Shown: positions 53,152 through 64,000, counted from the first letter of the stretch. The stretch is 64,000 bases of DNA from Candidatus Nezhaarchaeales archaeon (GCA_038887515.1 JAWAKK010000002.1:160001-224000), one strand, 5' to 3'. Notes: generated by a model from the letters alone, not told the origin. Translations and numbers: made by a program.

Positions 53152-54969
53152 TTGTGCGGGATTTTTGGTTGTACTTCGCTTAAAGAGGGCGTCTCAAAGT
53201 TAATTTACGTTTCTCTGAAAAAGCTAGAGTATAGAGGGTACGATTCTGTAGGCTTGGCAACCACGTATGGCGGGTATATATTTTTAAAGAAGGATCAAGG
53301 AAAGATAGAAGAAGTGGACAACAAGCTCCGTCTCGATACGTTGCCGGGAAGGTGCGGAATAGGACATACTCGATGGGCTACTCACGGTGCGCCTTCGAAG
53401 GAAAACGCTCATCCGCTAACGGATTGCGAAGGTAAAATAGCAGTAGCTCATAACGGAATCATAGAGAACTGTCTAGAGTTACGTAAAAAGCTAGAGCTTG
53501 AAGGTCACAAGCTCCGCTCTAGAACCGATAGTGAAATTATAGCCCATCTGGTAGAGGAACTAATTGGTAAAGGGTTTACATTAAAAGAAGCTGTTAGGCA
53601 GGCGGCGCTAAGCCTAAGGGGCTCCTCGGCCTTCGTAATCATCTCTGCGCTATTGGAGGATACTATTGTCTGTGTCAGGATGGGAAGTCCCTTGGTTATA
53701 GGTCTCTCGCACGACTTCGTGTGTTGTTCATCCGACGTGCAGGCTCTCCCTCAAGAAGTGGAAGGTATCATAATAATGAATGAAGGGGAACTTGCAGTAC
53801 TTACGCCGAAGGCGGTAATTATCGAGGATCTTGAGTCTGGACGCTCACTACCGCTCAGGACCTTGACTAAAGAAAGCATAGTTTATTCAGCTGATAGAGG
53901 AAGCTTTGCCCACTACATGATTAAAGAAATACATGAAGAGCCTCAAGTTGCGTTAAACATCATTAATGCACCCCATCAATTTGTACAGAACCTAGCTAGC
54001 GAACTCCTAAAGTCTGATAGAGTGTACTTAATTGGCTGTGGAACATCATACCACGCTTGCATCTTCGGCTCTTACGTACTGCGCTTTATGGCCGACATCG
54101 ACGCCTACCCTATAGTGGCGTCGGAGTTTAATGGTAATTACATAAATTTAAGAGGCAAAACGGCCGTGCTAGCCATATCTCAGTCCGGAGAAACGGCCGA
54201 CGTATTGCAAGTCTTGAGGTTACTTCAAGGAAAAGACGTCAAGTTGCTAGCCTTAACTAATGTTATGGGGTCTTCGATAACAAGGCTTGTTTCATCATAT
54301 GTAGGGCTCTATGCAGGCCCCGAAATGGGAGTAGCCGCTACTAAGACCTTTCTAGCTCAACTATTAATGCTCACGAGGATAAGCTTAGAGGCCGCAAAGA
54401 TCAAGGGTCTAAATAATGACATCGTTTTAGGCGCTGAACGATTCTTGATTTCCTCGCCAAGGCTTATAGGGCGAGCCGTCAAGGTCAATGAACCAATAGC
54501 GATGAGCATATCAGCGAACCTATCTTTAAAGGATAGTGCCTTCTTCTTAGCAAGAGGCGTGAACATAGTCACAGCCCTTGAAGGAGCCTTAAAACTTAAA
54601 GAGATAAGCTATGTTCATGCTGAGGGCTATCCTGCCGGAGAGTCTAAGCATGGTCCAATAGCTCTCGTAGACAAGGGCTTTCCATGCATTTTCATTTGCC
54701 CCCGCGACGAGACTTACGGTAAGATTGTAGGCAATATAATGGAGATGAAAGCTAGGGGCGCCTTCACAATTTCATGCGTAGAAGAAGGTGATAAGGAGGT
54801 TAAGGAGATTTCAGATAAAATTTTCGTACTTCCCGAGGTAGACGTTAAAATATTAACACCCATACTTCACGTAATACCACTCCAACTTCTAGCTTATTAC
54901 GTTGCCGTTGCAAGAGGATATGATCCCGATAAGCCTCGAAACCTCGCTAAATCTGTTACAGTCCCTTAA
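53152..54969 (+). CDS. glmS: Glutamine-fructose-6-phosphate aminotransferase
   Basis: CGIFG, LEYRGYDS, GHTRWATHG, SQSGET and PRNLAKSVT. Confidence 0.96.
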   Translation: MCGIFGCTSLKEGVSKLIYVSLKKLEYRGYDSVGLATTYGGYIFLKKDQGKIEEVDNKLRLDTLPGRCGIGHTRWATHGAPSKENAHPLTDCEGKIAVAHNGIIENCLELRKKLELEGHKLRSRTDSEIIAHLVEELIGKGFTLKEAVRQAALSLRGSSAFVIISALLEDTIVCVRMGSPLVIGLSHDFVCCSSDVQALPQEVEGIIIMNEGELAVLTPKAVIIEDLESGRSLPLRTLTKESIVYSADRGSFAHYMIKEIHEEPQVALNIINAPHQFVQNLASELLKSDRVYLIGCGTSYHACIFGSYVLRFMADIDAYPIVASEFNGNYINLRGKTAVLAISQSGETADVLQVLRLLQGKDVKLLALTNVMGSSITRLVSSYVGLYAGPEMGVAATKTFLAQLLMLTRISLEAAKIKGLNNDIVLGAERFLISSPRLIGRAVKVNEPIAMSISANLSLKDSAFFLARGVNIVTALEGALKLKEISYVHAEGYPAGESKHGPIALVDKGFPCIFICPRDETYGKIVGNIMEMKARGAFTISCVEEGDKEVKEISDKIFVLPEVDVKILTPILHVIPLQLLAYYVAVARGYDPDKPRNLAKSVTVP

Positions 54970-55983
54970 GCCTTCTTAGATCTATTGTATCGAAGACCTC
55001 TGGACCGGTGCTGATTATTGTTATTGGAATCTTTAGTTCTTCTTCAACGTTCTCTATCCATTCCTTAGCTTCACGTGGTAGCTTATCGTATTCTCTAACT
55101 CGTGAAGCTCCGGGGAAGAGCGTGTCTATCCTGGTTATGGCTATTTGGGTTGCGCTGTTAGCCATGACAGCCCTTTTGGCTAATTCAAAGTTAAATGGTG
55201 CAACCCTCCTCTTCCTCCCAGTCACGGTTGCAACTTCTATGAGCCCTAGCCTTTGAGCCTCTTCTTCTGAAAGTTCGCCGGGTAGTGGTCCGCTTCCAAC
55301 CCTAGTCACATAAGATTTAAAGACTACAATAACCTCGTCGACCATCTTAGGACCTATACCCACCTCACTGCAGACGGCTGAAGCAGTTGTATCGCGACTT
55401 GTGACATAAGGATAAGTCCCGTGGTAAAGAGATAGATAGTACCCCTGGGTCCCCTCAAGGAGCACGTTATGACCTTGATCAAGTGCCCTCCATACTAGTG
55501 TAGGCACATCATCAAGATAATCCCTTAGTTCTCCTACATCGCGAGCGAGCCTAGCCACCCTCCTGACTCTATCAACTATTGCGGCTCCAACGCCTTGGCC
55601 CGTCGATCCTATCTTGGACATTAAGTGTTCATCTTCCCGCTCCCTCTTTACATGTTCTTCTTCGATTATGGAGGCTTGTGGGTCTATCTTCAACCTGTCT
55701 TTAGCTTTAGTGAGTTCAAGCTCCCTCATTAAAACGTCGATTCTCAAATTGGCTCCAGCCGCTATGCATAATTCGGCTCGAGGGTTTACAAACCCGCAAG
55801 GTATAATCCTCAACTTGTATTCCTTGTTATTGTACATTACAGTGTGGCCTGCGTTAACCGACCCTGTTCTAACAGCTACTCTGACGTCATCTTTAAGTGC
55901 CAAGTAGGCACATACTTTTCCTTCTAGGGGGCTAAAGCCTTTCCCTCGTCCCCGAAAAAGCCTCCTACAACTACCGTCAGCAA
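54956..55983 (-). CDS. purA: Adenylosuccinate synthetase, split by a 17-nt intron; join(55983..55941, 55923..54956), 336 aa
   Basis: Spliced N-terminus MLTVVVGGFFGDEGKGKVCAYLA restores the GDEGKG motif; also NAGHT, EGTQG, YPYVTSRDT and TVTGRKRR. Confidence 0.93.
55924..55940 (-). other. BHB-type mRNA intron in purA (AGGCUUUAGCCCCCUAG)
   Basis: AGGG/CCCU 4-bp helix, bulges AA^A and AG^A, inner hairpin GGC-UUUA-GCC; removal restores frame and motif. Confidence 0.88.
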
Positions 55984-57074
55984 GCCTCTAACCCCCAGAA
56001 TGGTCCTAAAACCTTATCGTAAACTTCTTTTATAACTCTTAGACCGCTTTTCTTCACACTCTCCGACGAGGTTGTGCTGCCTTCTTCAATTATAGGCAAG
56101 TCTATAAGGTACGCAATTATATCGTACACTCCTCTTGCAAGGCCCGGGCCATATCCTCCTTCAAGCACGAACATTATCTTTTTCGTCACACATTCATCCA
56201 TCATTTTCTTGACGAACTTGGCTACCTTTAGGAAGGAGTTTAATGAAAGGTTCATCGATGTTATCGGGTCATCCTTGTGGGCATCAAATCCGGCTGATAA
56301 CAATAACACTTCCGGTCTATACTCTCTAACGACCCTTTCTACAACTTTATCTAGCGCTACTTCGTAGAGGTCGTCACCTGTAAAAGGAGGTAGCGGAACA
56401 TTAATGTTAAAACCTTTCCCCTCTCCTTCACCGACTTCATCAACAAACCCTGTACCGGGATATGCTGTCCTTCCATCTTGATGCGTACTTATATAGAGAA
56501 CGTTATTGTAGCTGTAGAAAATCTCTTGAGTACCATTTCCGTGGTGACAATCAAAGTCGAAGATTGCTACCTTCTTAAACCCGTACTTGTCGAGTAAATG
56601 CGTTGCTGCTATAGCGATATTGTTAAATATGCAAAAACCTAATGTCGGAGCCCCTAAAGCTGCCCCACTCCTACCGGCGTGGTGTCCTGGAGGCCTCTCT
56701 AAGGTGAAGCAGAAGTCGAAGCCTTCTTCTATCAGTTTCTTGCATCCTAATACTGCTGAACCAGCAGCATAAAGTGCGACTTCAAAACTATCCTTTGATA
56801 CGGGCGTATCCGGATCAAGGTACCTCTTGCCATCTGTAATGGTTCTATCTACCCACTTAATGTAATCAATGTCGTGAACTGCAGCTACTTCTTCTATCGA
56901 TGCCTTAATTGCTCTTTCAACCTTAACTTTAGATAGTACCCCTCTCCCCTTTAGCTCATTAATGACTTCAATGAGCCTTTGCGGCCTCTCAGGATGATGA
57001 GGACCCGTGTCATGCCTCAAAAACACATCATCATATATTATGCAGAGTTTAGAAGTCATTAGTCGAAACACCAC
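55977..57074 (-). CDS. Histone deacetylase-family protein
   Basis: HPERPQR, RPPGHHA, GFCIFNN, DCHHGNGTQ and LEGGY. Confidence 0.93.
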   Translation of the reverse strand: MVFRLMTSKLCIIYDDVFLRHDTGPHHPERPQRLIEVINELKGRGVLSKVKVERAIKASIEEVAAVHDIDYIKWVDRTITDGKRYLDPDTPVSKDSFEVALYAAGSAVLGCKKLIEEGFDFCFTLERPPGHHAGRSGAALGAPTLGFCIFNNIAIAATHLLDKYGFKKVAIFDFDCHHGNGTQEIFYSYNNVLYISTHQDGRTAYPGTGFVDEVGEGEGKGFNINVPLPPFTGDDLYEVALDKVVERVVREYRPEVLLLSAGFDAHKDDPITSMNLSLNSFLKVAKFVKKMMDECVTKKIMFVLEGGYGPGLARGVYDIIAYLIDLPIIEEGSTTSSESVKKSGLRVIKEVYDKVLGPFWGLEAC

Positions 57075-57137
57075 TCGTTTTTAAGCTTTAAACTTTAAAT
57101 AATCTTTTCACATCATTGAGAAGTTGGTGCAAATGAG

Positions 57138-57770
57138 TTGAGCTCTAGAGTTGAACTAAAACCTACGCGAATGGAGCTAATAAATTTAAGGCGTAGAAAG
57201 AGACTCGCCGAAAGAGGTCTTACTCTTCTTAAAGAGAAGCGCGACGCCCTAGTTATGGAGCTGTTGTCATTGGCCAAGGAATACCAGAATGTCATGCTCG
57301 AAGTAAGGGAGAAAATGGAGAAGGCATTAAGCTACCTTGCGCTGGCTAGGGCTGATGTAGGCGTATTTAAACTTAACGAGATAATAGCTACTTTGCGGTC
57401 TCAAGTAGCCATAGAAATTAGGACGAGAAGCATAATGGGGGTCACGACGCCTATGTTTAAAGTTGTACAGAAGGTGGAGACAGACGTTCCGCCATATAGT
57501 CTTCCAAGCACCACTACCTACATAGATGAAGCCGCTAAAGCCTTCAGGGAGTTATTTGTAACGATAATAAGGCTTGCAGAGATTCAAGCAGTAGCCAAAA
57601 GAATAGCTGAAGAGGTCGAAAAAGCCAAGAGGAGGGTCAATGCCCTTGAGCACGTTGTTATACCTATGATCGAGAAAAATATCAAGTTCATAGAACTCTA
57701 TCTAGATGAGCGGGCTCGCGAAGATATTTTTAGGTTAAGGCTTCTCAAGAAGAAGCGTGTAAAGAAGTAG
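57138..57770 (+). CDS. atpD: A/V-type ATP synthase subunit D
   Basis: KPTRMEL, LLKEKRDAL and KRRVNALEHVVIP. Confidence 0.93.
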   Translation: MSSRVELKPTRMELINLRRRKRLAERGLTLLKEKRDALVMELLSLAKEYQNVMLEVREKMEKALSYLALARADVGVFKLNEIIATLRSQVAIEIRTRSIMGVTTPMFKVVQKVETDVPPYSLPSTTTYIDEAAKAFRELFVTIIRLAEIQAVAKRIAEEVEKAKRRVNALEHVVIPMIEKNIKFIELYLDERAREDIFRLRLLKKKRVKK

Positions 57771-57776
57771 TTTTTC

Positions 57777-58139
57777 CTACTTGCTCCTCAGGTACAATAT
57801 TGCTCGTGCTAGATCGCCCTTGGTCGCTTTCAATGCCTTTCTAGCCTCTTCAAGACTTACGCCAGCTTGAGATGCAACTAATTGAACGTCCTCCTCTTGT
57901 ATATTCGGCTCCTCTTCAAGTACTAGAGCTCTTTCTTCAACTTCGCCCGTCACTTGGAAAACCGTTTGATCCCCCACCTTCATGCTAGTAACCTGAGGTT
58001 TCCTTACGACCAGCTCTCTATCTCGAAATTTAAATACGACGCTCTCAACGCCTTCGAGCTGTTCAACTGATATTCCAGCCTTCTTAACTGCTTGCAACAT
58101 CCTCTGTAGCTCTCTCGGGCTTATCCCCCTCACCTTCAA
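57777..58139 (-). CDS. nac: Nascent polypeptide-associated complex protein
   Basis: NAC domain plus UBA domain EDVQLVASQAGVS...GDLARAI. Confidence 0.9.
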   Translation of the reverse strand: MKVRGISPRELQRMLQAVKKAGISVEQLEGVESVVFKFRDRELVVRKPQVTSMKVGDQTVFQVTGEVEERALVLEEEPNIQEEDVQLVASQAGVSLEEARKALKATKGDLARAILYLRSK

Positions 58140-58611
58140 TCCCCCTCCTAATTTTCACTGCCACGCCTAAATTAAATGCTAGCATTTCGTAACCAGATAG
58201 TATGGCTCGGCCAACAGCCAACAGATCGTCTCTTTCGTCAACTACGAGGACCTCGTCGCCACATCGAATTTCTGGGTCAACTCTAATTACATGCTTCGCA
58301 AAAACGCTCTTCCCTTTTTTTATGAAATCTTTCACTTCCTCTTTAACGACTACCCTAAGCTTGGGTGGAGGGAAGTGCTTCAATAGGAGCTTAGCCCCCT
58401 CAATCGTTAGTGCCAAGAACCCGTCATTCCATCTAACTGTTGCTAGGAGCCTTCCTTCAGAGTCGTATACGTATCGTGGTTTTCCAGTCCTCTTTGAGAC
58501 CTCCACTCTAAGTCCTCTTGAAGCCAGCGCTTCGCCAGCTCCAGCTCCGAACTGGTAATCGGCACGCATCTTCACCGATTCCACTAAAATTTTCTCGCTT
58601 AAGCAGGCCAC
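58084..58611 (-). CDS. PUA-domain protein (archaeosine TGT C-terminal-like)
   Basis: ADYQFGAG, GKSVFAKHV and GVAVKIRRG. Confidence 0.85.
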   Translation of the reverse strand: MACLSEKILVESVKMRADYQFGAGAGEALASRGLRVEVSKRTGKPRYVYDSEGRLLATVRWNDGFLALTIEGAKLLLKHFPPPKLRVVVKEEVKDFIKKGKSVFAKHVIRVDPEIRCGDEVLVVDERDDLLAVGRAILSGYEMLAFNLGVAVKIRRGIEGEGDKPERATEDVASS

Positions 58612-58666
58612 AATACATTTTAGCTTAAAGTTGTAGATTAATATCTAGCGTTGCGAGGTTTAGAAA

Positions 58667-59134
58667 ATGTTGTGCGAGCTTTGTGGCAAACCAGTAATGG
58701 GGAAACCAGTTAAAGTTTGGATTGAAGGGGCGCAATTAACGGTTTGTCAACGATGTTCCCGCTATGGTTCTATCGTGAAAACCGGGACCGCAACTACTGT
58801 CCGTCCACAGGTTCAATTGAAGCGTAGAGGGGTAAAACTAGGCGTCGAGAACCTAGTTTTGGTTAATAATTACAGTGCCCTCATCCGTCAAGCGAGGGAG
58901 AGCATGGGCTTAACGCAAGCCGATTTAGCGCGTTTGATAGGCGAGAAAGAGTCCATAATACGTAGACTTGAGGGTGGTCGTATGGCTCCTACACTGGAGC
59001 TTGCTAGAAAGCTCGAGAAGCAATTGAAGATAAGGCTATACGAAGAGGTACACGAAACCCAAGAAGTGCCTAGGCCTCAGAGCTTTCAGCTAACTTTAGG
59101 TGATGTAGCAGTAATAAAGGAACGGAACGAGTAA
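58667..59134 (+). CDS. mbf1: Multiprotein bridging factor aMBF1
   Basis: CELCG...C..C Zn ribbon, HTH and TLGD. Confidence 0.92.
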   Translation: MLCELCGKPVMGKPVKVWIEGAQLTVCQRCSRYGSIVKTGTATTVRPQVQLKRRGVKLGVENLVLVNNYSALIRQARESMGLTQADLARLIGEKESIIRRLEGGRMAPTLELARKLEKQLKIRLYEEVHETQEVPRPQSFQLTLGDVAVIKERNE

Positions 59135-59152
59135 ACCCCCTTTATCTGCCAA

Positions 59153-60262
59153 CTAGAATTGTTGTTCAACAATTTCAACTTTCTCGATTATTTTTTTAAG
59201 AAGGAAGCTTACGTTGACGCCCTTCCTAGCGCTGATGGGCACGATGTCGCATTGAGGTGCCAAGTCCTTTATTAATTTTAACGATTTTTCAAGTCGTGAA
59301 TCTCCTATTAAGTCTATCTTGTTGGCAGCTATTATTACGGGCTTGTTGTCGCCTGCTATCTCAGAGATTATCGACAGCGAAGTCGTAAGCTTCCTCTCAA
59401 TTTTTGAGGCAGTCTCGGAAGAATCTATCAACAACGTTACTACGTCAGAGAGCCTTAACTCTACAAGCGTTGCGTGGAACGCATCAAGTATTAAGTGCGG
59501 CATTTCATCGATGAATCCGAGAGAATCTACAACTATGAAGTCCTTACCTTGTGCATTAACTCTCCTAGCGCAAGTCTCGAGTGTTGTGAAGGGCCCGAGA
59601 CCCGTCACCTTGCCCTCCTTAGTTAGGAGGTTAAATAAGGTGGTCTTACCCGACTGAGTGTAACCCGTTAATGTAACTATCGGTAAACTTATCTCCTTAC
59701 GTTGAAAGACTAATTTTTCCTGCCTCTTCTTCAATTCTTCCAGCTTATCTTCTATAAGTTTGATTCTCCTTCGGGCAAAGGAAAGGTAAGCCTTATAAGG
59801 ATAGCCTCCAAGCGACCCGAAACCCATTTTCTCGCTACCAAAGCCCTTTAACCTGACGAGCTCTCGAGCCCAAGGCAATGTATACCTTAGCCTAGCGAGC
59901 TCTATCTGAAGCTTTGCCTCCGAAGTAGAAGCCCTCTTATCGAAGATGTCCAGGATCAACAGTACCCTATCCAAGATGTTCACATCGAGGCCTAACTCCT
60001 TTTGTAGCCTAAAGTATTGTCCGGGCTTTAATTCGTTAGCGAAAACTACGGTCTTTACGCCATACCTTTTTAGCCTTTCCTTTAGTTCCTGAAGCTTTCC
60101 CGGTCCTATTAGGAACCCAGCGTGAGGCCTTTCCCTTATCTGGATTACCTTGTCGACAACTATGAAGCCTCTGTTCCTCGCTAGCTCCTCGACTTCCTGA
60201 AGCCTGAAGTCATCATTTCTCTGGAAAACTCCAATGATTATAGTCTTCTCCAAGTCCGTCAC
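59153..60262 (-). CDS. hflX: GTPase HflX
   Basis: EAKLQIELARLRY, GYTQSGKTT, DSLGF, NKID and ISA. Confidence 0.9.
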   Translation of the reverse strand: MTDLEKTIIIGVFQRNDDFRLQEVEELARNRGFIVVDKVIQIRERPHAGFLIGPGKLQELKERLKRYGVKTVVFANELKPGQYFRLQKELGLDVNILDRVLLILDIFDKRASTSEAKLQIELARLRYTLPWARELVRLKGFGSEKMGFGSLGGYPYKAYLSFARRRIKLIEDKLEELKKRQEKLVFQRKEISLPIVTLTGYTQSGKTTLFNLLTKEGKVTGLGPFTTLETCARRVNAQGKDFIVVDSLGFIDEMPHLILDAFHATLVELRLSDVVTLLIDSSETASKIERKLTTSLSIISEIAGDNKPVIIAANKIDLIGDSRLEKSLKLIKDLAPQCDIVPISARKGVNVSFLLKKIIEKVEIVEQQF

Positions 60263-60792
60263 CTTAAGATCTTGACCTTTTTGCCTCTAGGGCTGGGTTC
60301 GATTTCAATCCTTCCACCCTCAAACTTGAAGTTAAATTCTACTCCATTGTAGAACCAGTCGAGAAACACGGCTACAGCTGCTACTTCGCTATGTGGTTGA
60401 TTTGTTACGGAAACGTTAAAGTCTGCTACTTCGTAGAAGTATTTAGGGACTTTAGGCCCTCCAACAAGCACCATTAGCCTTTCCTTACGTCTAATCTCCT
60501 CTATGATTTGGGGGAGGGGGATGCCGTACATGGTTAAATGTACTATGCAGAAGCCCTCTTCCTTCGCCCCCTTTATGACTTTGTTAATATCGATCCCGGT
60601 CTTCACTACAAATTCTCCGCCGAACATTCTATTTACTTGAATAACCTTCTGCTCCAACTTTTCATCTTTCCCATCAAACCATATCTCGCGGGCCCCAAAA
60701 GCTCTAGCGACAAGCGCCAAGTGCGTACTAACTCTTTTATCTCGAAGGGGTCTATGACCATACCTTACTATCACTATTTTTGGTCGGCACAT
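60259..60792 (-). CDS. trm56: tRNA (C56-2'-O)-methyltransferase
   Basis: GHRP.RDKRVSTH, HLTMYG and NQPHSEVAA. Confidence 0.93.
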   Translation of the reverse strand: MCRPKIVIVRYGHRPLRDKRVSTHLALVARAFGAREIWFDGKDEKLEQKVIQVNRMFGGEFVVKTGIDINKVIKGAKEEGFCIVHLTMYGIPLPQIIEEIRRKERLMVLVGGPKVPKYFYEVADFNVSVTNQPHSEVAAVAVFLDWFYNGVEFNFKFEGGRIEIEPSPRGKKVKILR

Positions 60793-60860
60793 CGGTTATT
60801 AATTTAATAAGCATTTTTTTAAACTTGCTAGGGGCATTATACCTGGGTGGCAGAGAATTC

Positions 60861-61388
60861 ATGGTTTCGGAGCCCTCAGAGCAATACGATAAAGAGTTGA
60901 CAAACGTACTATTGAAGCTGATTGCAGTACTTTGTGGCAAAGACGCCATCGAAGTAGTCAAAGTGTTACTTAACGAGAAGGAGATGAGTGACGAGATACT
61001 AGCCGAGAAAACGGGTATGAGACTTAACCAAGTTCGACGAATCCTCTACGACCTTCTGGACAAGCACGTCGTGACTTACCAGAGAGGGATAGATGAAGAA
61101 AGGGGTTATTACGTGTACACTTGGTCTCTGAATAGGGACGGCCTAAAGGAGATAGTGAAGGAGAGAAAGAGGCTAGTCTTAGAGAGACTGCGCGAGAGAA
61201 TTCGATACGAGGAGCAGAACATGTTCTTCGTTTGTCCCAACAGTTGTACTGGTAGGATGCCCTTTGATAAGGCTTTGGATCAACAGTTTAAATGCTTGCG
61301 TTGTGGCGCAGTACTGCAAAGCTTCGATAACACCAAGATGATTGAGAAGTTAAGGGCAAAAATAGAGGCGTTAGAGAAGGATCCTTAA
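60861..61388 (+). CDS. tfe: Transcription factor E (TFE-alpha)
   Basis: wHTH (VRRILY.L...Y.W) plus Zn ribbon F.C..CG. Confidence 0.9.
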   Translation: MVSEPSEQYDKELTNVLLKLIAVLCGKDAIEVVKVLLNEKEMSDEILAEKTGMRLNQVRRILYDLLDKHVVTYQRGIDEERGYYVYTWSLNRDGLKEIVKERKRLVLERLRERIRYEEQNMFFVCPNSCTGRMPFDKALDQQFKCLRCGAVLQSFDNTKMIEKLRAKIEALEKDP

Positions 61389-61486
61389 GCGTAGTTACGA
61401 TGTAGAGTTACCTCCTAGAGAGCTTAAAGGACAAGATACGTAAGTTTTATCTTACCTTAGGGGTAGAACCAATCCTTGTGGGTTTT

Positions 61487-63176
61487 ATGAAATACATTTT
61501 CATTACAGGAGGTGTTTTATCAAGCGTAGGTAAGGGGGCCGTGACTGCTTCGATAGGCAAGATGCTCCAGGTTAGAGGCTTTTCTGTAACGGCAATAAAG
61601 ATAGACCCATAGGCCTTAGGGGCCGGGTAAACATAAACGTTGATGCTGGAACAATGAACCCATAGGCTCTGAGCTGGAGGCTTAGAGCCGGGTATATATG
61701 CATGGCGAGGTCTTCGTGACGGAGGATGGCGGCGAGGTAGACCTAGATCTCGGTCACTATGAGCGTTTTCTCGATATAGACCTATCAAAGGACAACAACA
61801 TTACGACTGGACAAGTGTACATGGTGGTCATAGAGGCCGAGAGGAGGGGGAAGTACCTCGGCAAGTGCGTACAAATAATACCTCACATAACCGACGAGGT
61901 GAAGAGGAGGATAAGGTTAGTAGCTCAGAAGAGCAACGTGGACGTGACGCTCGTAGAATGTGGAGGCACAACGGGGGACATAGAGGGACTCCCCTTCCTT
62001 GAGGCTATAAGGCAAATGAGACTTGAAGAGGGCTTTTCGAACACGCTCTTTGTTCATGTAGCCTTAGTTCCAATATTGGAAGTAACTGGAGAATTTAAGA
62101 CGAAACCTCTACAACACAGCGTCCAAGAGCTTAGACGCATAGGTATACAGCCCGACATCGTAGTGGCAAGGTGTAAGCAGCCGCTAGACGATGAAGCCAA
62201 GAAGAAAATAGCGCTTTACAGCAACGTCCCTGAAGAGGCGGTGTTCACGTCTTACGATGTGGACTGCATATACGAGCTTCCAATAATACTTGATGGACAG
62301 GGAATGGGCGCTTACATATGTAAGCGGCTTACGCTAGATGGATGTAAAGCCGACTGGTCTTCGTGGAGGGAGATAGTTGAGAGGTATAGAAGTTTTAAGT
62401 ACGAAGTCGAAGTATGCATGTGCGGTAAGTACACGAAGCTAAAGGACTCTTACATAAGCATAATAGAGGCCTTAAAGCATGCGGGCGCAGCCCTTGAAAC
62501 TAAGGTTAACATGACATGGCTCGAGGCAACAACGTTCGAACAAGGAGAGGGCATACCTCGAGAGTTTCAGGATATTTTGAGTTCCTGTGATGGCATAATA
62601 GTACTGCCGGGCTTTGGGGCCCGTGGGGCAGAAGGTAAGATTAAGGTCATCAGATACGCAAGGGAAAACAAGGTACCGTTCCTGGGCATATGCTTTGGAA
62701 TGCAACTGGCAATTGTAGAGTTTGCACGAAACGTTGTAGGTCTCAAAGAAGCAAACACAACAGAACTTGATCCGTCAACGTACCACCCGGTTGTTGACCT
62801 CCTACCGGAACAGCACTACGTTAAGGAAGTAGGTGGTACTATGAGACTCGGGGCTCAGGCAACCGTGCTTGAACCCGGAACGAAAGTCTACGAGCTTTAT
62901 GGAAGGCCGATAATATTTGAAAGGCATAGGCATAGGTACGAGGTCAACCCGACCTACTGGTCTGTACTTCAAAGCCACGGTTTGGTCTTCTCCGGATATA
63001 GCATTGATAAACGGAGGGTGGAGTTCATAGAGCTCAGGGACCACCCATTCTTTGTTGCAACTCAATCGCACCCAGAGTTCAAGTCGAGGCCCAATAGACC
63101 CTCACCCATATATTACGGCTTCGTGAAGGCCTGCCTCGAGCATAGGCTTAAGAGATTATCAGCTCCGAAATGCTGA
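61487..63176 (+). CDS. pyrG: CTP synthase, split by two introns; join(61487..61610, 61631..61663, 61696..63176), 545 aa
   Basis: Spliced product reads [17 protein letters not shown]...[27 protein letters not shown]; also [16 protein letters not shown] and HPEF. Confidence 0.95.
61611..61630 (+). other. BHB-type mRNA intron 1 in pyrG (AGGCCUUAGGGGCCGGGUAA)
   Basis: ACCC/GGGU helix, bulges AU^A and AA^A, inner hairpin GGCC-UUAGG-GGCC. Confidence 0.9.
61664..61695 (+). other. BHB-type mRNA intron 2 in pyrG (AGGCUCUGAGCUGGAGGCUUAGAGCCGGGUAU)
   Basis: ACCC/GGGU helix, bulges AU^A and AU^A, 10-bp inner stem GGCUCUGAGC/GCUUAGAGCC. Confidence 0.92.
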
Positions 63177-63186
63177 TGGTCAAAGG

Positions 63187-64000
63187 CTATGAACGCTTGA
63201 ACGAAGCATAAGCTTCTCGCATCGCTTCTACGAACCTCCTCGTAGCCTCTTCGGGGTTTGAAGACCTTGTTATCGCTGAGCCTACAATTATTATCTTGCA
63301 ACCACTTTTGACCAATTCTCTTATGTGCTCAAGCCTAACTCCGCCGGCTACAGCGACGGGTACCTTCACGGAATTGACTACTTCCTCAACGAGCTTTATC
63401 TTCCTAGTTACGTCCCTCTCCCTCATTTGCGTACTTATGCCCATATGCACGCATATTATATCGCATCCCAACTTCTCAACCTCCTTTGCCCTGGCGAGTG
63501 GATCCTGTACATTTATCAGGTCACACATTATCTTGACGTTGTACTTCCTAGCAGCACCTACAGCATCTTTAATAGTGTAGTCGTCGGTAGCGCCCAACAC
63601 CGTAACTACATCAGCCCCAGCTTCGGCTGCAAGCTCCACTTCGAGCCAACCCGTGTCAAAGGTTTTGAGGTCGGCTACTATAGTAGCATAAGGGAACCTC
63701 CTTCTAAACTCCTTCACTGCTTCTAGGCCAGCGGACTTTATGAGTGGGGTCCCAACCTCGATGATCTCGGCTCCTCCTCTATAGCAGGCCTCGGCTATGC
63801 TTAGCCCATCTTTCATATACCTTTCATCTATTGCTACCTGTAGCTTGGGCCCCGTGTAGAGGGGCTCGAGACCTAACTGCTGGAGCTTCTTGTCTGTGGG
63901 TACTCCGTGATAGTTCCAGCCTCTAATAGCATAATAAGAATCGATTAATCTCGTTAGGTCGACAACTTCTCCCTTGGATGCCCCCTCTCTCAACTTTTCA
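63187..64000 (-). CDS. Fusion of an aldehyde:ferredoxin oxidoreductase-like C-terminus with 3-hexulose-6-phosphate synthase (5' end outside window)
   Basis: EGASKGEVVDL...YYAIRGW...GVPT..KL..LGL (AOR end) runs in frame into PKLQVAID, IEVGTPLIK, ADLKTFDTG and VAGG (HPS/KGPDC barrel). Confidence 0.8.
   Translation of the reverse strand, partial: EKLREGASKGEVVDLTRLIDSYYAIRGWNYHGVPTDKKLQQLGLEPLYTGPKLQVAIDERYMKDGLSIAEACYRGGAEIIEVGTPLIKSAGLEAVKEFRRRFPYATIVADLKTFDTGWLEVELAAEAGADVVTVLGATDDYTIKDAVGAARKYNVKIMCDLINVQDPLARAKEVEKLGCDIICVHMGISTQMRERDVTRKIKLVEEVVNSVKVPVAVAGGVRLEHIRELVKSGCKIIIVGSAITRSSNPEEATRRFVEAMREAYASFKRS

Follow-up and report, generated by a model that had tools for sequence, protein, structure and literature searches.

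The DNA examined here is a window of 64,000 nucleotides (nt) from the genome of a Candidatus Nezhaarchaeales archaeon (G000), an assembly of 1.29 Mb in nine contigs, of which the window covers positions 160001-224000 of contig C2 (G000:C2:160001-224000). It carries pyrG, which encodes CTP synthase, and purA, which encodes adenylosuccinate synthetase. Both genes are interrupted near their 5' ends by very short inserts, two in pyrG and one in purA, which have the form of bulge-helix-bulge (BHB) introns. Positions given without a contig label refer to the window.

Architecture of the pyrG and purA inserts

On the plus strand, exon 1 of pyrG (61487-61610) starts with ATG and comprises 41 codons and the first base of a tyrosine codon, matching positions 1-40 of the Pfam profile CTP_synth_N (E 6.5e-15). 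It is followed by BHB-type micro-intron 1 (61611-61630, 20 nt), which reads ACCC AU^A GGCC(U)-loop-(G)GGCC GGGU AA^A with its exon borders, the predicted cuts being marked by carets. Exon 2 (61631-61663, 33 nt) supplies positions 41-53 of the same profile and is followed by BHB-type micro-intron 2 (61664-61695, 32 nt), which shows ACCC AU^A, a hairpin of 10-11 base pairs (bp), and GGGU AU^A. The remainder of CTP synthase, including the stop codon, is encoded by exon 3 (61696-63176), which matches CTP_synth_N 54-265 (E 6.2e-91) and GATase, and the long downstream open frame extends over 61698-63176. The two pyrG introns are alike in exon context and ends (ACCCAU^AGGC...GCCGGGUA).

On the minus strand, exon 1 of purA (55941-55983), as delimited by splicing in silico, starts with TTG and comprises 14 codons and one base, with the G-D-E-G-K of the P-loop. 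The purA micro-intron (55924-55940, 17 nt) is a minimal BHB with a 3-bp hairpin (AGGG AA^A GGC-UUUA-GCC CCCU AG^A). Exon 2 (54956-55923) encodes the remainder of adenylosuccinate synthetase, including the stop codon (Pfam Adenylsucc_synt, E 2.1e-70).

The three inserts share one layout, namely a 4-nt exon strand, a 3-nt bulge, a hairpin, a 4-nt complement of the exon strand, and a second 3-nt bulge. All are placed after the first position of a codon (phase 1), and all fall in N-terminal nucleotide-binding motifs, at D-P|Y-I-N-V-D and M-N-P|Y-M-H-G-E in PyrG and at G-D-E-G-K|G-K in PurA. Retention of any of them gives an in-frame UAG; in pyrG, the frame of exon 1 ends at a TAG formed by the last base of the exon and the first two bases of the intron. 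An earlier note, made from the sequence alone, had proposed this architecture at these coordinates, as well as the conserved 5' motifs and the in-frame UAG. Direct reading at pyrG and purA bears out the former, and the latter two hold for all three inserts. Two of its generalisations are valid only in part. Lengths of 3n+2 were observed in this genome only (17, 20, and 32 nt), whereas the corresponding lengths in relatives (19-27, 30-33, and 16-18 nt) include some multiples of three, and the 3n+2 lengths are an accident of this genome. Likewise, phase 1 applies to the three inserts of the window, but the other introns of the genome sit in phases 0, 1, and 2.

Excision in silico restores both enzymes

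The splice rule consists of a cut after the second base of each bulge, so the cut positions are set by the geometry and there is no free parameter. Applied to pyrG, this rule gives a PyrG of 545 amino acids (aa) without an internal stop; applied to purA, it gives an intact P-loop, G-D-E-G-K-G-K. The predicted spliced junctions are ...GACCCAU|ACAUAAAC..., ...AACCCAU|AUAUGCAU... and ...GAGGGAA|AAGGAAAA... In all three cases, the junction residue (Tyr, Tyr, and Lys, respectively) is encoded by the codon that the insert splits. The CTP_synth_N matches 1-40 and 54-265 flank the breaks, and the gap of 13 profile positions between them is accounted for by exon 2 and the two split Tyr codons. With regard to PurA, the downstream frame aligns to residues 17-336 of PDB chain 2d7u_A, so that it lacks the enzyme's first 16 residues, which are exactly the P-loop segment. 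Exon 1 of purA taken alone (a piece of 24 aa) gave no Pfam match. Comparison with relatives, of which one shows ATG at this position, led to the choice of TTG as its start. Both pyrG and purA are present as single copies in the genome.

Public gene models of this PyrG cluster are N-terminally short. The full-length ones, among the 15 of 38 cluster members listed, measure 492-504 aa, compared with 545 aa for the spliced product, and four further models in that listing are still shorter (286-463 aa). Public CTP synthase models start just after intron 2, without the first ~50 residues; in one source, they are named 'CTP synthase'.

Conservation among relatives

Forty relatives were searched. The family to which G000 belongs is Nezhaarchaeota-like, lies within the class Methanomethylicia, and comprises 10 genomes, G000 included, in four genera. 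Both pyrG introns were found at the same Pro-Tyr codons in 10/10 family genomes, and the purA intron at the same codon in 10/10. The truncated pyrG open frame measures 496-504 aa in all nine other family genomes, compared with 524-577 aa in other families. In the nine family relatives, pyrG intron 1 is 19-27 nt long, intron 2 is 30-33 nt, and the purA intron is 16-18 nt (17 nt in relative L034, whose purA was read by eye). Retention gives UAG in every family genome; the UAG is kept despite this drift in length because the stop is made of the exon's U and the intron's AG. Stops flagged as lying inside purA of four relatives were found not to be internal.

Across the 10 family genomes, the stems are kept and the loops vary in both length and sequence. 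In pyrG intron 1, the GGCC stem is replaced by GACCC/GGGUC in two of the 10 genomes. In pyrG intron 2, U-A to C-G and C-G to U-A changes are observed, and one genome has AACC/GGUU, which the alignment displaces. The purA stem is GGC/GCC, with GGU/ACC in one genome and GGU/GCC in another. In pyrG intron 2, 96.4% of 140 pair cells are paired, compared with 14.7-52.1% when the partners are slid. The corresponding values are 97.8% against 16.7-60.0% for pyrG intron 1, and 98.6% against 33.9-71.4% for purA. Changes on both sides of a pair occur at five pairs in total across the three introns, and the covariation score was matched by 5/500 shuffles for intron 2, 2/500 for intron 1, and 87/500 for purA. 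On these alignments, compensatory changes lend good support to the pyrG introns and weak support to the purA hairpin of 3 bp.

The upstream pyrG exons were compared in the spliced frame over 45 pairs of genomes. They show 1015 synonymous and 128 nonsynonymous codon differences, and their nucleotide differences are distributed over the three codon positions as 123/52/1092. This substitution pattern shows that the upstream exons, read in the spliced frame, are constrained at the protein level.

The sequence itself was reproduced by another assembler: a contig from a DNA run, possibly of the source sample, covers 54800-63300 with 0 differences at a depth of 20. The presence of the inserts in 10/10 genomes, the paired stem changes, and this second assembly agree with the proposal of the earlier note that the structure is selected and does not result from random error. 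The same DNA run also contains a contig of another, more abundant organism that joins straight to the sequence following intron 2 (window 61698), which is an intron-free pyrG of a community neighbour.

Predicted RNA structures

Minimum free energy folds were computed at 37 °C and compared with 200 shuffles; the organism's habitat is a hot spring. The fold obtained for pyrG intron 1 is exactly the predicted helix-bulge-hairpin (z -1.55, with 14/200 shuffles as stable). Intron 2 folds at -23.6 kcal/mol (z -3.62), and 0/200 shuffles were as stable.

The same type of structure was found elsewhere in the genome. Two 3-nt bulges on opposite strands, with a 4-bp helix between them, are present in the three inserts and in six more introns, in the genes of aIF2-gamma, aIF5B, uS5, an IF-2B-family protein, HypD, and Cbf5, the helix being 4/4 paired in G000. 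Over the set, the z-scores extend from -5.14 for aIF5B, the strongest, to -0.52 for purA. The intron hairpin (h') exists in every case, with 3-11 bp. Intron 2 of pyrG and the aIF5B, cbf5, and hypD introns adopt the predicted fold plus an outer exon-exon helix (h) of 3-6 bp, which is clear in aIF5B (6 bp) and is predicted to have 3-4 bp in cbf5, hypD, and pyrG intron 2. In the fragments from aIF2-gamma, uS5, and the IF-2B-like gene, the intron hairpin is retained and the pairing around the bulges is shifted in register. Weak or absent outer helices correspond to the relaxed form of the motif, and a broad-specificity enzyme would therefore be needed.

Splicing endonuclease, ligase and tRNA introns

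A search of the genome with PF01974 returned two EndA paralogues, both above the cut-off, on contigs C1 and C3. The alpha-like paralogue is closest to PDB chains 3p1z_B (E 2.6e-48), 3ajv_B, 2zyz_B, and 2cv8_A; the search output names no organism for them, and we take them to be crenarchaeal catalytic subunits. Its alignment runs ungapped through the Crenarchaea-specific loop and shows Lys at the K44 position. This loop was defined by Hirata et al., and K44 is given in the available part of that paper as required for a broad substrate range (PMC3241643). The second paralogue has Gly in place of the catalytic His and lacks nine loop residues; its PDB matches include, weakly, the structural chains 3p1z_A and 3ajv_A. 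RtcB is encoded as well (E 5.2e-181). The broad-specificity EndA that the earlier note expected is thus recovered, as a predicted (alpha-beta)2-type enzyme, from the two paralogues and from the comparison of the loop and of K44.

The four tRNA genes of the window have no predicted intron, in agreement with the earlier description. Genome-wide, ARAGORN predicted introns in 18 of 46 tRNA genes, and the 31-nt intron of tRNA-His (G000 C2:358795-358905) fits the strict BHB motif just as the mRNA introns do. The five small contigs C5-C9 (6.6-12 kb each) have a G+C content of 0.50-0.63, compared with 0.44-0.45 in the four large contigs, and may not belong to the organism.

Genome census of BHB-type introns

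The loose motif of the earlier note, in which G-U pairs are allowed, has 102 matches in the genome, compared with 44-54 in five shuffles. Our strict motif calls for a compact perfect hairpin and for an A at two places, the third base of the 5' bulge and the first base of the 3' bulge; it was the only definition that gave an excess. Strict-motif matches whose excision restores an open reading frame (ORF) numbered 17, compared with six for a decoy pairing rule. Eight of the 17, namely pyrG intron 2, purA, and six more genes, are verifiable by motif restoration; the other nine are unverified or false. Under looser BHB definitions, the decoy and the real pairing rule yielded ORF-restoring matches in like numbers (1069 against 1129, 153 against 130, 1731 against 1888, and 60380 against 64064). 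Filtering by codon usage discarded cases known to be true and left 18 against 16. The strict-motif match at C1:3042-3064 is located inside the open uS5 frame, and for those at C2:313565-313584, C2:129387-129418, C1:62815-62843, and C2:343809-343836 no restored motif could be recognised.

The six further putative introns each fall in a highly conserved motif. Two are in the translation factors aIF2-gamma (C2:24144-24175, 32 nt; junction D-C-P-G-H-E|M-L-M-A-T, with GTP_EFTU matches 4-80 and 85-187 on the two sides) and aIF5B (C2:21722-21750, 29 nt; junction G-A-M|T-Q-H-I-G). Three lie on the minus strand, in uS5 (C1:3238-3267, 30 nt; junction Q-R-Q-T-D|A-G-E, with Ribosomal_S5 matched from position 17), in a gene of the IF-2B/MtnA family (C1:10133-10162, 30 nt; junction T-H-C-N-A-G-A-L-A-T, with IF-2B matches 2-114 and 117-279), and in hypD (C3:12273-12294, 22 nt; junction C-G-T-H, with HypD matched from position 29). 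The sixth is in cbf5 (C2:333915-333935, 21 nt; junction G-H-G-G-T-L-D-P, with the break in TruB_N at position 17); this known case served as a positive control. The Pfam coordinates abut for three of them (aIF2-gamma, IF-2B, and cbf5). A search with PF00009 found aEF1-alpha and aEF2 intact and no translational GTPase missed.

With cbf5 and pyrG intron 1 included, the census amounts to at least nine putative introns in eight genes, and the same splice rule restores, in silico, the frame and the conserved motifs in 9/9. This supports the suggestion of the earlier note that the lineage may splice many mRNAs. The census is a lower bound, as introns that are in frame and stop-free, that are long or branched, or that follow a very short first exon escape it. 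The aIF2-gamma intron is present in 10/10 family loci and absent from 14/14 resolved loci of other families (six unresolved). The IF-2B-like intron is present in 9/9 family loci and absent from 5/5 resolved loci of other families (16 unresolved). Both show paired stem changes.

Distribution beyond the family

The named records nearest to the PyrG of the window are metagenome-assembled genomes (MAGs) labelled Candidatus Nezhaarchaeota, Nezhaarchaeales, or Methanomethylicota. The mapping of intron presence across relatives, which the earlier note had advised, showed that different pyrG and purA introns occur outside the family in which all three are universal. Among the 30 pyrG loci of the class, 10 carry the two Pro-Tyr introns (this family), 10 carry an intron in the P-loop (three other families), and 10 have none. 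The P-loop intron is 21-28 nt long, lies at V-G-K|G, and has the form GGGG AA^A GG..CC CCC[U/C] A[A/G]^A (L012-L015, L020-L025, L065); its hairpins covary strongly between families (GGGAGC, GGAAGC, GGAGGA). Three genomes of another family (L049, L051, L057) have a purA intron of 18-22 nt (GGGG AA^A GGC..GCC CCCU AG^A), one nucleotide downstream of the site used in the Nezhaarchaeota-like family and hence in phase 2 instead of 1. Outside the class, 72 of 75 pyrG loci read through, two are cut by contig ends, and one has an insert: a MAG labelled Bathyarchaeia (L069:1430-1480) carries a 21-nt BHB insert exactly at the site of pyrG intron 1 (D-P|Y).

One type, GGGG AA^A GG..CC CCCU AR^A, occupies G-K-G codons of the P-loop in purA of the Nezhaarchaeota-like family and of the three genomes just named, and in pyrG of the 10 genomes from three other families. 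This recurrence in two genes, together with the near-identical ends at the two ACCCAU sites, suggests that the micro-introns have a target-site preference and were mobile in the past. The three introns of the window appear to be old and fixed in the family's common ancestor, and they behave as tolerated, probably once-mobile, selfish elements and not as regulators. More tentatively, the introns of 16-35 nt could form a family of mobile elements that copy themselves into matching targets of 8-9 nt, a possibility that we consider less likely than its absence. A free intron would pair in trans with its target to form a BHB, EndA cutting and RtcB joining would insert it, and the DNA would be reached by reverse transcription or recombination.

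Interpretation and alternative explanations

Based on these results, the inserts are very probably BHB micro-introns of pre-mRNAs that are spliced by EndA and RtcB. The geometry, the restoration of the proteins, the conservation, the coding constraint, and the genes of the enzymes are observed, and from these we infer cutting and ligation. The last four exon bases before the insert would pair with four bases near its 3' end to form the central 4-bp helix, the 3-nt bulges on opposite strands would flank this helix, and the rest of the insert would form the hairpin, as one outer helix. An (alpha-beta)2 EndA would cut after the second base of each bulge, and RtcB would join the exons into mRNAs for full-length CTP synthase and adenylosuccinate synthetase. 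In unspliced pyrG and purA mRNAs, the frame would stop at a UAG located inside the insert or at its end, which would make CTP and AMP synthesis dependent on the tRNA-splicing machinery. The same logic would apply to aIF2-gamma, aIF5B, uS5, Cbf5, HypD, and the IF-2B-family protein.

Several observations weigh against splicing. No RNA support was obtained: 0 reads fell on 54800-63300 in ~3/100 of each run of two metatranscriptomes of the same study, in which the presence of the organism is not shown. The covariation rests on few events, and that of purA is indistinguishable from shuffles (the 87/500 given above). An A-C mismatch occurs at the outermost pair of the central helix in 4/30 intron copies (2/10 for intron 2, 1/10 for intron 1, and 1/10 for purA). 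The minimum-energy fold of purA differs from the BHB (z -0.52, 61/200 shuffles as stable); the two smallest structures, purA and pyrG intron 1, are thermodynamically weak at 37 °C; and their exon-exon outer helix is absent or weak. Finally, the strict motif is not enriched over the decoy pairing rule (81 against 79, with 41 and 52 in two shuffles). Because the BHB motif by itself is common in the genome, the evidential weight rests on function and conservation.

Among the alternatives, the one that survives best, although unlikely, invokes another nuclease and ligase pair, or cutting of the BHB without efficient re-ligation, which would make the inserts signals for mRNA decay or a regulatory switch such as the checkpoint on nucleotide synthesis that the earlier note had raised, with EndA and RtcB activity limiting the supply of CTP and AMP. 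Precedents are given in the available text of a review, where EndA cleavage was first reported without shown ligation for one Haloferax mRNA and where cleavage by yeast TSEN leads to decay (PMC10485636). Cutting could be inefficient owing to the weakness of the outer helices, and the targets cluster in nucleotide synthesis and translation. However, the enzymes are essential and encoded by single-copy genes, which means that splicing must mostly be productive. In addition, the same kind of intron occurs in uS5, hypD, and cbf5 (genes of a ribosomal protein, of hydrogenase maturation, and of a pseudouridine synthase), and at other pyrG sites elsewhere, and a history of insertion fits this distribution better than pathway control. 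The idea of a regulatory checkpoint for CTP and AMP synthesis is not supported.

Translational recoding, in which the ribosome would bypass the insert in the manner of phage T4 gene 60 or shift frame, with no splicing at all, is very improbable. The stop comes immediately after the last sense codon (CCA UAG) and lies at the base of a hairpin, an arrangement that resembles the take-off site of gene 60. The junction residues Tyr, Tyr, and Lys, however, derive from split codons and cannot be made by hopping from codon to codon, and no landing codon matching the take-off codon lies in the right place. Bypassing also does not require a 4-nt complement that tracks the exon in different genes. As for frameshifting, stop-containing inserts of 16-35 nt exceed +1/-1 shifts. 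Group I or II self-splicing introns have a ribozyme core of hundreds of nt, and inteins an in-frame protein-splicing domain; the small size of the inserts, together with the stops that they carry or the frames that they shift, led us to discard both.

Decaying pseudogenes or sequencing and assembly artefacts deserve hardly any credence. They would explain the truncated models of gene callers and the stop or frameshift that each insert introduces close to the 5' end of its essential host gene. They are contradicted, however, by inserts at the same codons in 10/10 family genomes with variable loops and paired stem changes, upstream exons that change mainly at third positions, the lack of a second pyrG or purA copy, and the identical contig of the other assembler.

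Significance

If splicing by EndA and RtcB occurs as predicted, the splicing of archaeal protein genes would not be a curiosity of one gene, cbf5, but a routine need for core enzymes and translation factors in this lineage. The substrate range of the tRNA-splicing endonuclease and of RtcB would be widened, and viability would depend on both well beyond tRNA. With regard to annotation, breaks of this kind can pass as pseudogenes or assembly errors and thereby distort metabolic reconstructions of uncultured archaea. For the study of evolution, they would offer a manageable collection of intron gains that can be dated, placed in conserved motifs, specific to families, and accompanied by sister families without introns. 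The signs of a preference for target sites are relevant to the spread of protein-spliced introns and to the old question of pre-eukaryotic introns in coding genes. If the micro-introns do prove mobile, endonuclease-type mRNA splicing would be general but overlooked in part of the Thermoproteota, with a mechanism of gain that can be studied.

Comparison with known systems

In the searchable literature, which excludes subscription journals and supplements, only cbf5 and Haloferax HVO_1309 are named as endonuclease-spliced archaeal mRNAs. No description was found there of introns in pyrG, purA, aIF2-gamma, aIF5B, uS5, or hypD, nor of introns in any mRNA from Nezhaarchaeota, Methanomethylicia, or Verstraetearchaeota. 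The remark of the earlier note that pyrG and purA introns are undescribed stands to that extent. According to the available text of Yokobori et al., introns had been predicted in further protein genes, for which they cite a book chapter of 2006 and a paper of 2004, and had not been confirmed, and gene prediction suffers (PMC2738675).

Two systems resemble the inserts in some respects. In T4 gene 60, a hairpin stop directly follows the last sense codon, and a short untranslated gap comes next; gene 60 requires matched take-off and landing codons, whereas the inserts have none and their junction residue comes from a split codon. The splicing of XBP1/HAC1 by IRE1 and RtcB removes a very short intron by cuts in paired stem-loops, with an RtcB-type ligase and a change of frame. 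Its working is like that predicted here, with a short intron, a protein endonuclease, and RtcB-type joining, and no homology is implied. In contrast to the micro-introns, it uses another nuclease and another RNA motif, is regulated by stress, and has an unspliced form that is also translated. IRE1 is named as spliceosome-independent splicing in the available text of PMC13149111.

Archaeal tRNA introns at canonical or non-canonical positions, of the hBHBh' and relaxed forms, have the same 4-bp helix between 3-nt bulges, cuts after the second bulge base, and presumably the same enzymes. The putative mRNA introns differ from them in that the host lacks a tRNA body, the exon-exon helix is often weak, and the outcome is a restored reading frame. 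In Haloferax volcanii, the HVO_1309 mRNA contains a BHB, which the archaeal splicing endonuclease cuts, as far as the available texts describe it (PMC10485636, PMC7714728), and it is grouped with cbf5 under 'at least two archaeal genes' in the accessible part of a review from 2023 (PMC10485636). Unlike the introns described here, HVO_1309 is a single euryarchaeal case with an alpha2 enzyme and not a set of coding-sequence breaks in conserved motifs.

Among the closest known systems is the cbf5 intron of Crenarchaeota (Desulfurococcales and Sulfolobales). In the available parts of two sources, it is described as a short BHB-type intron with a relaxed motif in a gene that is mis-predicted, which the tRNA-splicing endonuclease cuts in lineages that have an (alpha-beta)2 enzyme (PMC2738675, PMC10485636). 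The cbf5 of the present genome has a 21-nt intron of the same layout. In contrast to the crenarchaeal case, whose splicing has been shown experimentally, splicing is predicted here, and the lineage is a Nezhaarchaeota-like group of Methanomethylicia in which at least eight genes are interrupted, pyrG twice, with hosts in nucleotide synthesis and translation and with introns as short as 16-17 nt. The inserts appear to constitute a new set of BHB pre-mRNA introns, with putative splicing, that stands out for its number, its small sizes, its placement in the most conserved motifs of essential genes, and its distribution across a class.

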